A DNA stretch of 17,675 nt from a virus: UHGV virus genome UHGV-0262902. One strand, given 5' to 3'. Each line of letters starts with the position of its first letter. Positions within the stretch are counted from its first letter, which is position 1. A program made the position numbers and the translations under genes. Below are positions 6,078 through 15,383 of this stretch, one piece after another. The notes under the pieces are model-generated. The model saw only the letters and a list, made by a program, of their open reading frames with translations. It was not told the DNA's origin and made no database searches.

Positions 6078-8075
6078 ATGAGCACAAAATTCAGAACCGT
6101 TATCACCACTGCCGGTGCAGCAAAGCTGGCAGCGGCAACCGCGCCGGGAGGGCGGAAGGTCAACATTACCACGATGGCCGTCGGGGATGGAGGTGGTAAA
6201 TTGCCTGTCCCGGATGCCGGACAGACCGGGCTTATCCATGAAGTCTGGCGACATGCGCTGAACAAAATCAGCCAGGACAAACGAAACAGTAATTATATTA
6301 TCGCAGAGCTGGTTATTCCGCCGGAGGTGGGCGGTTTCTGGATGCGTGAGCTTGGCCTGTACGATGATGCGGGAACATTAATTGCCGTGGCGAACATGGC
6401 CGAAAGTTATAAGCCAGCTCTTGCCGAAGGCTCAGGGCGTTCGCAGACCTGTCGCATGGTCATCATCGTCAGCAGTGTGGCCTCAGTGGCGCTGACCATT
6501 GACACCACAGCGGTGATGGCGACGCAGGATTACGTTGATGACAAAATTGCAGAGCATGGACAGTCACGACGTCACCCGGACGCCTCGCTGACCGCAAAAG
6601 GTTTTACTCAGTTAAGCAATGCGACCAACAGCACGTCTGAAACACTGGCCGCAACGCCGAAAGCGGTAAAGGCCGCGTATGATCTTGCTAACGGGAAATA
6701 CACTGCGCAGGATGCCACCACAGCGCGAAAAGGCCTTGTCCAGCTCAGTAGCGCCACCAACAGCACGTCTGAAACGCTCGCCGCAACACCAAAAGCGGTA
6801 AAGGCAGCATATGACCTTGCTAATGGGAAATACACTGCACAGGACGCCACCACAGCGCGAAAAGGTCTTGTCCAGCTCAGTAGCGCCACCAACAGCGATT
6901 CTGAAACGCTTGCGGCAACGCCAAAGGCGGTTAAGACAGCGTATGACCTTGCTAACGGAAAATACACTGCACAGGACGCCACCACGGCGCGGAAAGGTCT
7001 TGTTCAGCTCAATAGTGCCATCAACAGCGATTCTGAAACGCTGGCTGCAACACCAAAAGCGGTGAAGTCTGCCTATGACAATGCTGAAAAACGTCTTCAG
7101 AAAGATCAAAATGGCGCGGATATTCCTGATAAAAGATTATTCCTGCGCAATATTGGAGCAACAAATTCAACAACCATGTCTTTTAGTGGTGGTACAGGAT
7201 GGTTCAGGCTGGCAACTGTAACCATGCCACAGGCCAGTTCCGTGGTTTACATAAGTCTGATTGGTGGTGCTGGATATAATGTTAACTCCCCTATGCAGGC
7301 TGGTATATCTGAACTTGTTCTTCGTGCGGGAAATGGAAATCCAAAAGGTCTTACTGGTGCGTTATGGCGACGGACATCGGTTGGATTTACTAATTTTGCA
7401 TGGGTGAATACATCCGGTGATACCTATGATGTTTATGTTGAAATAGGTAATTACGCCACAGGTGTTAATATTCAGTGGGATTATACCAGTAACGCCAGCG
7501 TAACGATTCATACATCACCAACTTATACAGCGAATAAACCAACAGGTCTTACAGATGGAACTGTATATGTAATTTACAGTTCGCACATTAAACCGACTGC
7601 TGCTGATGTTGGGGCGTTGTCATTATCTGGAGGTCAATTGAATGGTGCACTGGGCATCGGAACATCCAGTGTTCTTGGCGGTAACTCAATTGTTTTGGGT
7701 GATAATGACACGGGCTTTAAACAAAATGGTGACGGTAATCTGGATGTTTATGCTAATAACGTTCATGTTATGCGCTTTGTCTCCGGTAGCATTCAAAGTA
7801 ATAAAACCATAAATATTACGGGTCGTGTTAATCCCACAGATTACGGTAACTTTGATTCCCGCTATGTCCGGGATATCCGGCTTGGTGGTGCTGCCACATA
7901 CAAACCTGCGAACAATGGCATGACATGGACACATCAGGCACCGTCCGGGTGTGTATATTCCGGCATTATTATTCAGGATACCGGCTCAAACTCTGCCGAT
8001 AACATTGGTGGCGTATATTACAGACCGGTGCAGAAATACATTAACGGGACATGGTATAACGTGGCACAGGTATAA
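6078..8075 (+). CDS. H: Tail fibre protein gpH (665 aa) with internal tandem repeats and an AT-richer distal domain
   Basis: GGAAG before ATG 6078; conserved-looking N-terminus; four 44-aa repeats in the shaft; the region from about 7100 on is visibly lower in GC, as expected for a swapped receptor-binding module. Confidence 0.85.
   Translation: MSTKFRTVITTAGAAKLAAATAPGGRKVNITTMAVGDGGGKLPVPDAGQTGLIHEVWRHALNKISQDKRNSNYIIAELVIPPEVGGFWMRELGLYDDAGTLIAVANMAESYKPALAEGSGRSQTCRMVIIVSSVASVALTIDTTAVMATQDYVDDKIAEHGQSRRHPDASLTAKGFTQLSNATNSTSETLAATPKAVKAAYDLANGKYTAQDATTARKGLVQLSSATNSTSETLAATPKAVKAAYDLANGKYTAQDATTARKGLVQLSSATNSDSETLAATPKAVKTAYDLANGKYTAQDATTARKGLVQLNSAINSDSETLAATPKAVKSAYDNAEKRLQKDQNGADIPDKRLFLRNIGATNSTTMSFSGGTGWFRLATVTMPQASSVVYISLIGGAGYNVNSPMQAGISELVLRAGNGNPKGLTGALWRRTSVGFTNFAWVNTSGDTYDVYVEIGNYATGVNIQWDYTSNASVTIHTSPTYTANKPTGLTDGTVYVIYSSHIKPTAADVGALSLSGGQLNGALGIGTSSVLGGNSIVLGDNDTGFKQNGDGNLDVYANNVHVMRFVSGSIQSNKTINITGRVNPTDYGNFDSRYVRDIRLGGAATYKPANNGMTWTHQAPSGCVYSGIIIQDTGSNSADNIGGVYYRPVQKYINGTWYNVAQV
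6597..7095 (+). repeat. Four tandem in-frame 132-bp (44-aa) repeats inside H
   Basis: Repeat anchors AAAGG at 6597, 6729, 6861 and 6993, each exactly 132 bp apart; peptide unit approx KGLVQLSSATNSTSETLAATPKAVKAAYDLANGKYTAQDATTAR; the fourth copy degenerates after ...AYDNAEKR. Confidence 0.85.
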
Positions 8076-8078
8076 TTT

Positions 8079-8606
8079 ATGCAGCATTTAAAAAATATTA
8101 CGGTGGGTAATCCAAAAACGGTTGAACAATATCAATTGACAAAGGGCTTTGATGTTGTCTGGTTTTTTACAGAAGATGGTAAGAACTGGTACGAAGAACA
8201 AAAGTATTTTGCTGATGACACGATAAAAATAGCGTACGACAAAGATAATATCATCCGCTATGTGGAAAAGGATGTGACAGCTATCAGACCGGATGGATTA
8301 AGTGTGGTTGAAGTGGCGGATATTACTGCTAACCGACGGGCGGATATTTCAGGGGGCTGGATGTTTAAGGACGGCAAAGTGATTAAACGCATTTATACGG
8401 CAGAGGAATTACAGCAGCAGGCAGAAATTCGGAAAGCCAGACTTCTTGCAGATGCTGAATCCGTGATTTTGCCGCTGGAGCGCGCGGTCAGACTGAACAT
8501 GGCAACAGAGGAGGAGCGCACACGGCTGGAGGCTTGGGAACGCTACAGCGTTCTGGTCAGTCGTGTGGATCCTGCAAATCCTGAATGGCCGGAAATGCCG
8601 CAATAA
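8079..8606 (+). CDS. G: Tail fibre assembly chaperone gpG (175 aa)
   Basis: Immediately downstream of H (4-nt gap); length matches P2 gpG; AT-rich like the distal part of H. Confidence 0.8.
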
Positions 8607-8936: not shown

Positions 8937-9722
8937 ATGTCAGGAATAAGATGGTTGGATAAAAAAGATTTAATCCTTAAAGGAATAAATGAAGGCACCT
9001 ACCCAGAATCAGTTTACAAGTTCAGAACTATAGATAAAGCCTGTGATATTCTTCAAAAAAAAGAATTTTACTTTTCATCAGCGGAAAATTTTAATGATCC
9101 ATTTGATTGTATGCTGGATGAGGAAAAAGAATACTCTTTATCAGACTTTACTTGTTGGTTATATTCATATCAGAATGGATTAACCAAGAAGGCAAAGCAG
9201 AACTTAATAGATGTGTATAAAGAAAACAGCCAAGCATTTAATGATCTAGTTAAAAATATAAAAACAAAAGCCGTCAATGCCCATGGCATTTTATCGCTAT
9301 CTAAAACTAATGAAAATGTTCTTTTATGGTCTCATTATGCGGAGAACCATACCGGAGTTGCTATAAAACTCAATATTGCTAAGGATCCAGAGTTCTTTAT
9401 AACCCCCCAAAACATAGTATATATGAAGCAATATATTCCATTAAATTATCTTAGAGACCCTAAAAAATCAATACTCGACACACTCTCTACGAAATCAATG
9501 GATTGGAATTATGAAGAGGAGATTAGAGTTTATAAAAGTAATATTGGAGCCTATAAGATTAAGCCAGAGGCAATAACTGATGTTTTTTTTGGTTTGAAAA
9601 CGCTGGAACAGGATATTGCAAAAATCAAAAATATATGTAGTGAAAATGGTCTAAGCCATGTGAAGTTTCATCGGGCTGAAAAAAAATATGGAGAATTTGC
9701 GCTACGTTTTAATCCTATTTGA
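8937..9722 (+). CDS. Cargo protein A: DUF2971-like protein of unknown function (261 aa)
   Basis: Consensus SD AAGGAGG at 8924-8930, 6-nt spacer, ATG 8937. AT-rich codon usage. Motifs YKFR (27-30), FYFSSAENFNDPFDC (44-58) and LLWSHYAENHTGVAIK (129-144) resemble the DUF2971 signature as I remember it; no characterised function is known to me. Confidence 0.7.
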   Translation: MSGIRWLDKKDLILKGINEGTYPESVYKFRTIDKACDILQKKEFYFSSAENFNDPFDCMLDEEKEYSLSDFTCWLYSYQNGLTKKAKQNLIDVYKENSQAFNDLVKNIKTKAVNAHGILSLSKTNENVLLWSHYAENHTGVAIKLNIAKDPEFFITPQNIVYMKQYIPLNYLRDPKKSILDTLSTKSMDWNYEEEIRVYKSNIGAYKIKPEAITDVFFGLKTLEQDIAKIKNICSENGLSHVKFHRAEKKYGEFALRFNPI

Positions 9723-9808: not shown

Positions 9809-10294
9809 ATGAATCAAGATGAGTTAAAAAATTTTTGTGTTGATGTGCGTGAAGCACTTGAGAAGATGACCAAAAAAGATCATTCACGGCTGTCATCCTT
9901 TAGAAATTCGAACTTTCCAGTGGGATGCTGCGGAGATACATCGAAACTGCTTGCTTATTTGCTTTATCAGCAATTCGGGATAGTCTCTGAAGTACTCGCA
10001 GGATATTACTATGAATCTGATCATAAGTCCCCCGCCAGCGGTCTTTCAAACGGTAATTCACATGCTTGGCTTGTCGTGGATGGAATGATTGTTGATTTGA
10101 CTGCAGATCAGTTCAACGACCGGGGATATAACAATCTTCCCGTCATGATTACATCAGACACTAGGTTTCATGACCTCTTTGCCAATCGTAATGCCTCGTT
10201 TCAACCTTCTCAAGGTAATGAAATTATTCTACCTGATATTCTAAAAATGACAGCATCACATGTGCAGCAAAGGCTTAAAGAGCGAGGTTGGTAA
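9809..10294 (+). CDS. Cargo protein B: small protein with transglutaminase/papain-like Cys-His-Asp motif arrangement (161 aa)
   Basis: ATG 9809 after a weak AAGG; AT-rich. Motifs G-C-C-G-D (Cys40/41), S-H-A-W-LVVDG (His85) and VDLTADQ (Asp96/Asp100) appear in the order and spacing typical of transglutaminase-like cysteine peptidase cores. Assignment is motif-based only. Confidence 0.6.
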   Translation: MNQDELKNFCVDVREALEKMTKKDHSRLSSFRNSNFPVGCCGDTSKLLAYLLYQQFGIVSEVLAGYYYESDHKSPASGLSNGNSHAWLVVDGMIVDLTADQFNDRGYNNLPVMITSDTRFHDLFANRNASFQPSQGNEIILPDILKMTASHVQQRLKERGW

Positions 10295-12791: not shown

Positions 12792-12943
12792 CGTTTCCGA
12801 AAAATCTCTCGGTCGATGACCTGATGGCGGATGTGGCAGTGATATTTCACTGGCCGCCATCAGAACTGTATCCCATGAGCCTGACCGAACTCATCACATG
12901 GCGCGAAAAGGCGCTCCGGCGAAGCGGAAACACGAATGAGTAA
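12516..12943 (+). CDS. E+E': E+E' frameshift-extended tail assembly chaperone (142 aa, -1 frameshift at 12764-12770)
   Basis: Heptamer T_TTT_TTG at 12764-12770 in the E frame; the -1 frame is open from 12770 to TAA at 12941-12943 (57 codons, ending ...REKALRRSGNTNE), overlapping the T start by 8 nt. 85 + 57 = 142 aa, the size I recall for P2 E+E'. Confidence 0.75.
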
Positions 12944-15383
12944 CAATGTAAAATTACAGGTATTACTCAGGGCTGTTGACCAGGCATCCCGCCCGTTTAA
13001 ATCCATCCGCACAGCGAGCAAATCGCTGTCGGGGGATATCCGGGAAACACAAAAATCACTGCGCGAGCTGAACGGTCAGGCATCCCGTATTGAGGGATTT
13101 CGCAAGACCAGTGCACAGCTCGCCGTGACTGGTCATGCACTTGAAAAGGCACGGCAGGAAGCCGAAGCCCTTGCCACACAGTTTAAAAACACCGAACGTC
13201 CGACCCGTGCTCAGGCGAAAGTGCTGGAATCCGCAAAGCGTGCGGCGGAGGACTTACAGGCAAAATATAACCGCCTGACGGATTCCGTTAAACGCCAGCA
13301 GCGGGAACTGGCCACTGTGGGAATTAATACCCGCAATCTTGCACATGATGAGCAGGGACTGAAAAACCGTATCAGTGAAACCACCGCACAGCTTAACCGT
13401 CAGCGTGACGCGCTGGCGCGTGTCAGTGCGCAACAGGCAAAACTTAACGCAGTCAAACAGCGTTATCAAGCCGGAAAGGAACTGGCCGGAAATATGGCCT
13501 CAGTGGGCGCTGCCGGTGTGGGGATTGCTGCTGCGGGAACGATGGCCGGTGTTAAGCTGCTGATGCCCGGTTATGAGTTTGCGCAGAAAAACTCAGAATT
13601 GCAGGCCGTGCTAGGTGTGGCAAAAGACTCCGCCGAAATGGCTGCACTCCGCAAGCAGGCGCGCCAGCTCGGCGACAATACCGCAGCCTCGGCAGATGAT
13701 GCAGCCGGTGCACAGATTATCATTGCGAAAGCGGGTGGAGATGCTGCGGCTATTCAGGCAGCAACGCCGGTCACACTGAATATGGCACTGGCAAACCAGC
13801 GGTCGATGGAAGAAAACGCGCAACTGTTGCTGGGGACTAAGGCATCCTTTCAACTGTCAAATGATGATGTCAGCCATGTGGGCGACGTGTTGTCGGCAAC
13901 GATGAATAAGTCGGCGGCTGATTTTCAGGGACTCAGTGATGCACTGACTTACCTCGGCCCGGTTGCGAGGACGGCAGATGTAAGTCTTGAGCAGGCAGCG
14001 GCCATGACCGGTGTGCTGCATGACAATAACATCAGGGGGTCAATGGCGGGTACGGGTAGCAGTGCCGTTGTCACCCGATTACAGGCACCGACTGGAAAAG
14101 CATGGGATGCACTCAAAGAGCTTGGCGTTAAAACCTCGGACAAAAAGGGAAATATGCGTCCGTTGTTCACCATTCTGAAAGAGATTCAGGCCAGCTTTGA
14201 TAAGCATAAGCTGGGAACGTCTCAGAAGGGGGAATACCTTAAAACCATTTTTGGTGAGGAAGCCCTGAAATCAGCGAACGTTTTACTGGCAGCGGCAGCA
14301 AGCGGAAAACTGGATACGCTGACCGCCACGCTGAAAGCCTCGGACGGTAAAACGGAAGAGCTGGTTAAAATCATGCAGGATAACCTCGGCGGTGACTTTA
14401 AGGAGTTTCAGTCCGCTTATGAGGCGGTGGGGACTGACCTGTTTGACCAGCAGGAAGGCGCACTGCGTAAGCTCACTCAGACGGCCACAAAGTATGTGTT
14501 AAAACTCGACGGCTGGATCCAGAAAAACAAATCACTGGCGTCAACCATCGGTCTCATTGTCGGTGGCGCGCTGGCGCTTATTGGCATCATCGGTGCCATT
14601 GGTCTTGTAGCCTGGCCGGTTATCACCGGCATCAATGCCATTATCGCGGCAGCAGGCGCAATGGGGGCAATCTTCACGACGGTTGGCAGTGCTGTTATGA
14701 CGGCCATCGGGGCGATTAGCTGGCCGGTTGTGGCCGTGGTGGCCGCCATTGTCGCCGGGGCGTTGCTTATCCATAAATACTGGGAGCCTGTCAGCGCATT
14801 CTTTGGCGGTGTGGTTGAAGGGCTGAAAGCGGCATTTGCGCCGGTGGGGGAACTGTTCACGCCACTGAAGCCGGTGTTTGACTGGCTGGGCGAAAAGTTA
14901 CAGGCCGCGTGGCAGTGGTTTAAAAACCTGATTGCCCCGGTCAAAGCCACCCAGGACACCCTGAACCGTTGCCGTGACACGGGCGTCATGTTCGGGCAGG
15001 CACTGGCTGACGCGCTGATGCTGCCGCTTAATGCGTTCAACAAACTGCGCAGCGGTATAGACTGGGTACTGGAAAAACTCGGGGTTATCAACAAAGAGTC
15101 AGACACACTTGACCAGACCGCCGCCAGAACTCATGCCGCCACGTATGGCACCGGTGGTTATATTCCGGCGACCAGCTCTTATGCAGCCTATCAGGCTTAT
15201 CAGCCGGTCACGGCACCGGCTGGCCGCTCTTATGTGGACCAGAGTAAAAACGAATATCACATCAGTCTGACGGGCGGTACTGCGCCTGGGACTCAGCTCG
15301 ACCGCCAGTTACAGGATGCGCTCGAAAAATACGAGCGGGATAAACGTGCGCGCGCCCGTGCCAGCATGATGCATGACGGTTAA
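12936..15383 (+). CDS. T: Tail tape measure protein gpT (815 aa)
   Basis: Long protein with a charged helical N-terminal half and Gly/Ala-rich hydrophobic segments near the C-terminus (e.g. IGLIVGGALALIGIIGAIGLVAWPVITG); length matches P2 T. Confidence 0.9.
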   Translation: MSNNVKLQVLLRAVDQASRPFKSIRTASKSLSGDIRETQKSLRELNGQASRIEGFRKTSAQLAVTGHALEKARQEAEALATQFKNTERPTRAQAKVLESAKRAAEDLQAKYNRLTDSVKRQQRELATVGINTRNLAHDEQGLKNRISETTAQLNRQRDALARVSAQQAKLNAVKQRYQAGKELAGNMASVGAAGVGIAAAGTMAGVKLLMPGYEFAQKNSELQAVLGVAKDSAEMAALRKQARQLGDNTAASADDAAGAQIIIAKAGGDAAAIQAATPVTLNMALANQRSMEENAQLLLGTKASFQLSNDDVSHVGDVLSATMNKSAADFQGLSDALTYLGPVARTADVSLEQAAAMTGVLHDNNIRGSMAGTGSSAVVTRLQAPTGKAWDALKELGVKTSDKKGNMRPLFTILKEIQASFDKHKLGTSQKGEYLKTIFGEEALKSANVLLAAAASGKLDTLTATLKASDGKTEELVKIMQDNLGGDFKEFQSAYEAVGTDLFDQQEGALRKLTQTATKYVLKLDGWIQKNKSLASTIGLIVGGALALIGIIGAIGLVAWPVITGINAIIAAAGAMGAIFTTVGSAVMTAIGAISWPVVAVVAAIVAGALLIHKYWEPVSAFFGGVVEGLKAAFAPVGELFTPLKPVFDWLGEKLQAAWQWFKNLIAPVKATQDTLNRCRDTGVMFGQALADALMLPLNAFNKLRSGIDWVLEKLGVINKESDTLDQTAARTHAATYGTGGYIPATSSYAAYQAYQPVTAPAGRSYVDQSKNEYHISLTGGTAPGTQLDRQLQDALEKYERDKRARARASMMHDG

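Follow-up and report, generated by a model that had tools for sequence, protein, structure and literature searches.

The closest described counterpart of the tail-fibre gene analysed here is gene H of phage P2 (NC_001895), which lies in the gene order V-W-J-I-H-G and encodes a product, gpH, of 669 amino acids. In P2 gpH, two repeat units (a unit that we call type A and a truncated unit of type B) are followed by a 426-amino-acid shaft/distal region. Units of this kind belong to the curated Pfam family PF03406 (Phage_fiber_2), the "phage tail fibre repeat." The tail fibre of phage Mu, gpS/gp49 (PDB 5yvq, 9ki1, and 8ju3), contains a single copy of the unit and then a linker of the form DNA..RL.KD.NGADIP.K (residues 99 to 175), and inversion of the G segment switches the distal part of the fibre (PMC11915804). 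In the cryo-electron microscopy study of Mu, only the N terminus of the fibre was modelled, an earlier C-terminal crystal structure was fitted into the map, and the paper is silent on whether the repeat is resolved (PMC11915804). The T4 proteins gp34 and gp12 contain mixed alpha-beta repeats of approximately 33 to 47 residues, each of which forms one trimeric shaft domain (PMC5537660). In the searchable literature on PF03406 and on P2-like and Mu fibres, we found no explicit description of copy-number variation in the gpH array.

A gpH-like tail-fibre gene of a P2-like prophage was found at positions 6078 to 8075 (plus strand; 665 amino acids) of the window, that is, the complete 17,675-nucleotide stretch of UHGV virus genome UHGV-0262902 that we analysed. 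Its N-terminal baseplate-attachment domain (amino acids 1 to 172; 6078 to 6593) shares 96.9% DNA identity with P2 gene H over 516 nucleotides, and Pfam family PF12571 (Phage_tail_fib) matches amino acids 1 to 151 with an E value of 1.1e-58. The protein also contains four stretches that match PF03406, with a total of 264.7 bits against a cutoff of 22 (E value, 1.8e-80). All four cover the model almost from end to end (best stretch, model positions 1 to 41 of 42), and the tandem units of approximately 40 residues within a phage tail-fibre protein are those of a typical multicopy member of the family, with no difference in kind. A match to TPR_20 was discarded, as its 19.6 bits fall below the cutoff of 25. 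The fibre protein is 100% identical to an Escherichia coli protein annotated as a tail fiber protein in RefSeq (WP_001537281.1), and seven RefSeq complete E. coli genomes contain the 1,998-bp gene at 100% identity; an eighth has it at 99.8%.

Immediately downstream, at 8079 to 8606 (plus strand), lies a gene for a gpG-like tail-fibre assembly chaperone (PF02413, Caudo_TAP; E value, 1.5e-33), whose product is annotated as a tail fiber assembly protein in a prophage with an identical fibre gene. In E. coli FDAARGOS_1286, the fibre gene is part of a P2-type late operon with the order V-W-J-I-H-G, in which the baseplate genes V, W, and J and the gene for tail protein I are followed by those for the fibre, fibre assembly, sheath, tube, and tape measure proteins. 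The features that mark a P2-like (Peduovirus) gpH were thus all found: the P2-related N-terminal domain, the V, W, J, I, H, G order, and the gpG-type chaperone. Judged by family, position, and neighbours, the array corresponds to the PF03406 repeats of a gpH-type tail fibre from a Peduovirus-like prophage of E. coli. In FDAARGOS_1286, whose fibre gene is identical to ours, the tape measure gene is split by ISEc12, an element of the IS21 family (L084, 17359 to 22392); the tape measure open reading frame (ORF) of the window is intact (12936 to 15383; 815 amino acids).

Two cargo genes lie between the fibre assembly and sheath genes of the window, at 8937 to 9722 and 9809 to 10294 (both plus strand), in the slot that is occupied by fun(Z) in P2. 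The first encodes a protein of 261 amino acids with matches to DUF2971 and to PDC-S31, a candidate defence family of PADLOC (E value, 2e-46), and the 161-amino-acid product of the second has no significant family match. The slot after gpG contains DUF6602 plus a gene for a SIR2_2 protein in the relative L081 (6068 to 8262) and a gene for a SduA_C (Shedu-type) protein in the relative L083 (5329 to 6555). The differing cargo suggests that the slot could be a hotspot for defence genes.

The repeat array extends from 6594 to 7085 with a period of 132 nucleotides, or 44 codons, and lies in frame within the 665-codon fibre ORF, where it gives a 44-residue period at amino acids 173 to 338. The preliminary description of a tandem, in-frame 132-bp array in this gene, placed near 6597 to 7095, was therefore correct in substance, with slightly shifted borders. 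Tandem Repeats Finder reported a single strong array in the window (6624 to 7079; period, 132; 3.5 copies; 88% matches; 0 indels; score, 667), and a separate repeat search recovered three 226-nucleotide copies spaced by 132 nucleotides between 6596 and 7085. Lag-132 identity over 6594 to 7085 was 0.856, compared with 0.260 ± 0.022 (maximum, 0.339) in 1,000 shuffles, so that the array is far beyond chance. It consists of three full units, at 6594 to 6725, 6726 to 6857, and 6858 to 6989, and a fourth, terminal unit at 6990 to 7085, of which only the first ~96 nucleotides are held in common with the others; its similarity to unit 3 ends near 7085, after approximately 32 codons, and its profile match stops at position 35 of 44. 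Two long antisense ORFs over the array, at 6608 to 6985 and 6612 to 7109 (both minus strand), were considered as genes and rejected, as neither bears a sign of selection on a product. The frame of the second accumulates 11 to 19 amino acid differences between units, and the first looks conserved only because it has its wobble positions in common with the sense frame. Both ORFs arise as a side effect of the repetition and of this overlap in wobble positions.

The units had been described as near identical, with only a few nucleotide differences, and as the outcome of a recent duplication; neither statement holds for the DNA. The three full units differ from each other at 14 to 28 of 132 positions (79 to 89% identity), with unit 2 being closer to unit 3 (89%) than to unit 1 (83%), and the fourth is 72 to 84% identical to the others over the common 96 nucleotides. 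It is at the protein level that the units are nearly identical, with two to six amino acid differences per 44 residues, and most of the changed codons are synonymous. Nei-Gojobori estimates for the full units (pairs 1-2, 1-3, and 2-3) gave a dS of 0.41 to 0.93 and a dN of 0.04 to 0.11, compared with a dS of 0.07 and a dN of 0.021 for the N-terminal domains of the window gene and P2. Because the dS between units is 6 to 13 times that between the two N-terminal domains, the units diverged from one another well before this prophage and P2 separated. The dN/dS of approximately 0.1 is that of a protein sequence under strong purifying selection.

Comparison with relatives led to the same conclusion. 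From 80 IMG/VR loci found via the N-terminal domain, we obtained 76 complete gpH genes, in which four unit types could be recognised: A, which is always first; B, with the motif NSTSE; C, with the motif NSDSE; and Z, which is terminal and truncated. Units 1 to 4 of the window are of types A, B, C, and Z, respectively, and this is also the commonest architecture, accounting for 42 of 77 typed arrays (76 relatives and the window). Each window unit has a mean identity of 94 to 96% to the units at the same position of other four-unit arrays (94% for units 1 and 2 and 96% for unit 3) and of 79 to 90% to units at other positions. This positional orthology, together with the predominance of A-B-C-Z, makes recent duplication the wrong account of the window array.

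Copy number does vary among relatives. The 76 IMG/VR genes contain two (n = 10), three (n = 2), four (n = 51), or five (n = 13) units, and the top-scoring database proteins include forms of 709 amino acids (five units) and of 745 to 753 amino acids (six units); a protein that is 87% identical overall to the window fibre, with the length difference included, has six units. Among the full-length matches listed from complete E. coli genomes, 19 are 1,998 bp and 18 are 2,130 bp in length, the latter being longer by exactly one unit, and sampling across the 1,609 matching genomes also brought up shorter forms of the gene. The N-terminal domain together with the array is present in 484 complete E. 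coli genomes. The expectation that such arrays can expand and contract was thus borne out over evolutionary time, since close relatives have 2, 3, 4, 5, or 6 units and the number is not identical in all related fibres. In most of the five- and six-unit relatives examined, it is type C that is doubled or tripled.

Arrays of different lengths were also found in front of the same distal part. Distal domains at least 98% identical to that of the window at the DNA level follow an A-B-Z array in L076 (621 amino acids) and an A-B-C-C-Z array in L004 (709 amino acids), and the same distal-type cluster includes the six-unit arrays A-B-B-C-C-Z of L081 (753 amino acids) and A-B-C-C-C-Z of L083 (745 amino acids). 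A second distal type is joined to either four or five units at 99.8% distal identity. Copy-number variation is, to judge from these arrays, not merely a correlate of different distal modules. We saw no simple trade-off between the number of units and the length of the distal part, as four-unit arrays occur on distal parts of 311 to 441 amino acids. Adjacent full units that are 0 to 1 nucleotide apart were found in 5 of 79 arrays, a proportion in which recent expansions may be undercounted, as draft assemblies could collapse near-identical units. These neighbours are, by their near identity, genuine recent duplications in the relatives concerned. Examples of identical or 1-nucleotide-apart neighbours are units 2 and 3 of L057 (from IMG/VR), units 3 and 4 of L020, and units 2 and 3 of L048; in L057, the presence of such neighbours within a four-unit array points to duplication plus loss or to gene conversion. 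Mixed copy numbers on one distal type and near-identical neighbours in relatives together argue for repeated gain and loss of whole units.

The P2 array begins at the same residue as that of the window fibre, with the same first unit (type A; 95% identity) and then a B-type unit (94% identity over the first 81 nucleotides). In contrast to the two units and 426-amino-acid region of P2, the window fibre has four units, a Mu-like linker, and a distal part of 334 amino acids. The preliminary description proposed that the repeats might account for a small length difference from P2 gpH. The two extra units do add 88 amino acids, and in this respect the proposal stands; however, the unrelated distal part is 92 amino acids shorter, which leaves a net 665 versus 669 amino acids. 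The similarity in length to P2 gpH is therefore a coincidence, and the small remaining difference is not accounted for by the repeats alone. Beyond the array, only the last ~170 amino acids of the window fibre align with P2 gpH (36% identity), with which it shares a C-terminal tip motif.

The conserved linker AYDNAEKRLQKDQNGADIPDKRLFLRNIG (7071 to 7157) aligns with residues ~130 to 175 of Mu gpS. In the form AYDNAEKRLQKDQNGADIP.K, this linker follows the last unit in most relatives and is also present in Mu gpS. Mu gpS differs from the window fibre in its N-terminal attachment region and in having only one unit, and resembles it in a related C-terminal tip. A counterpart of the invertible G segment of Mu was not seen in the window. 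The linker is common to most distal types, and the sequences past it fall into 13 types among the relatives. In P2-type fibres, divergence begins inside the last unit, directly after AATPKAVK; the other types diverge approximately 20 residues past the array, beyond the linker. The array and linker therefore form the border between a conserved proximal half and an exchangeable distal half, a border whose placement fits the known mosaic evolution of tail fibres, which is textbook phage biology. The variable distal part of the window fibre, which is presumably receptor binding and ends in the conserved tip, extends from 7158 to 8072. Its own end (7668 to 8072; amino acids 531 to 665) is also mosaic: residues 595 to 662 align strongly with 9cuy, a "short tail fiber" chain (E value, 2.3e-18), and with the tip of Mu gpS, and residues 531 to 603 align weakly with 6f45, a chain of a long tail fibre distal subunit, and with the Pfam family gp37_trimer.

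In a profile search of the PDB with the units, only the Mu gpS chains were found to carry the motif, and no sequence link to T4 gp34 or gp12 was recovered. The likeness to T4 is thus a functional analogy, limited to the building of a fibre from units, and serves as a lead. A single-sequence AlphaFold2 monomer prediction for amino acids 151 to 391 was unusable (pLDDT, 41.5; pTM, 0.24). Since Mu gpS is the only structure with the motif and its repeat is not described as resolved, we infer that the units act as shaft modules and that each would change the length of the fibre.

The locus is very probably an old A-B-C-Z array of PF03406 shaft units that is stably inherited and that occasionally gains or loses whole units. 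The array would occupy the proximal shaft of gpH, between the baseplate-attachment domain and the linker to the exchangeable distal part, with each 44-residue unit probably forming one structural module of a trimeric shaft; if so, the length of the fibre should depend in part on the number of units. Types A, B, C, and Z would be old paralogues, which purifying selection has kept nearly identical as proteins while their DNA diverged at synonymous sites. Their arrangement would be inherited stably, consistent with its being the commonest allele among relatives. Occasional unequal recombination in register, or slippage, between units of one genome or of different prophages would add or remove whole 132-nucleotide units and in this way give rise to the two- to six-unit alleles of the lineage. 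RecA-dependent unequal exchange, replication slippage, and exchange between prophages are indistinguishable in such sequence comparisons.

That the array is instead recently duplicated and recombination prone, a contingency-like locus that generates fibre-length heterogeneity within populations, is improbable. Such a reading could draw on the tandem, in-frame arrangement, which means that gain or loss of units keeps the reading frame, on the two- to six-unit relatives, and on the few relatives with truly recent duplications. Contingency loci, however, are expected to have near-identical units with long perfect homology and copy numbers that differ among near-identical strains, and what we found in the window is divergent units that are positional orthologues of those in other prophages. 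The longest exact in-register matches between neighbouring window units are 20 to 30 nucleotides. A length of 20 to 30 nucleotides is close to the lower limit at which homologous recombination in E. coli works efficiently. With no more than 30 nucleotides of perfect in-register identity, the window array should be a poor recombination substrate, and nothing points to a hypervariable locus here. Fast variation in length is not supported, since all 19 full-length matches at 96.5 to 100% identity listed from complete E. coli genomes keep the four-unit length of 1,998 bp, and among the gpH genes compared there was no pair that differed in unit number while being >99.5% identical in both flanks. 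The divergence of the units bears also on the possibility that the length of the array was misassembled, which we regard as negligible. Short-read assemblies can collapse or expand tandem repeats longer than a read, but units that are 11 to 21% diverged assemble unambiguously, and the identical gene in seven complete genomes, with an eighth at 99.8%, has the same length.

It is somewhat more conceivable, though still unlikely, that the array serves mainly as a conserved patch of homology for swapping distal receptor-binding parts, with changes in copy number being a neutral by-product of out-of-register exchange. The 13 distal types behind the same N-terminal domain and array are compatible with such a role, as are the points of divergence inside the last unit or shortly past the array and the presence of the motif in Mu gpS. 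For most types, however, the mosaic junction is in the linker rather than in the repeats, and copy number changes without a change of distal type; the low dN/dS and the dominance of A-B-C-Z, moreover, point to a structural function for the units themselves. The preferred reading, a stably inherited shaft array, may be extended by a more speculative proposal, which we consider doubtful: that unit number is an adaptive tuner of fibre length, with two- to six-unit alleles selected to suit the thickness of surface layers on the host (O antigen or capsule) and with the strong synonymous divergence of the units itself being maintained for its effect of stabilising the length against recombination.

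As a discovery, the array carries little weight, as several E. coli genomes contain the same gene without change. The feature is already known, being a common allele of an annotated P2-type fibre gene with repeats from a curated Pfam family, and the array is a product of ordinary modular fibre evolution rather than of fresh duplication. The modest by-product of our analysis is a picture of the gpH array in which old unit types (A, B, C, and Z) follow one another in order and are polymorphic at two to six copies, with one receptor-binding end found on shafts of different unit number. Such arrays may be of use in engineering P2-type fibres or tailocins, as a source of natural variants in length and of safe sites for fusion.
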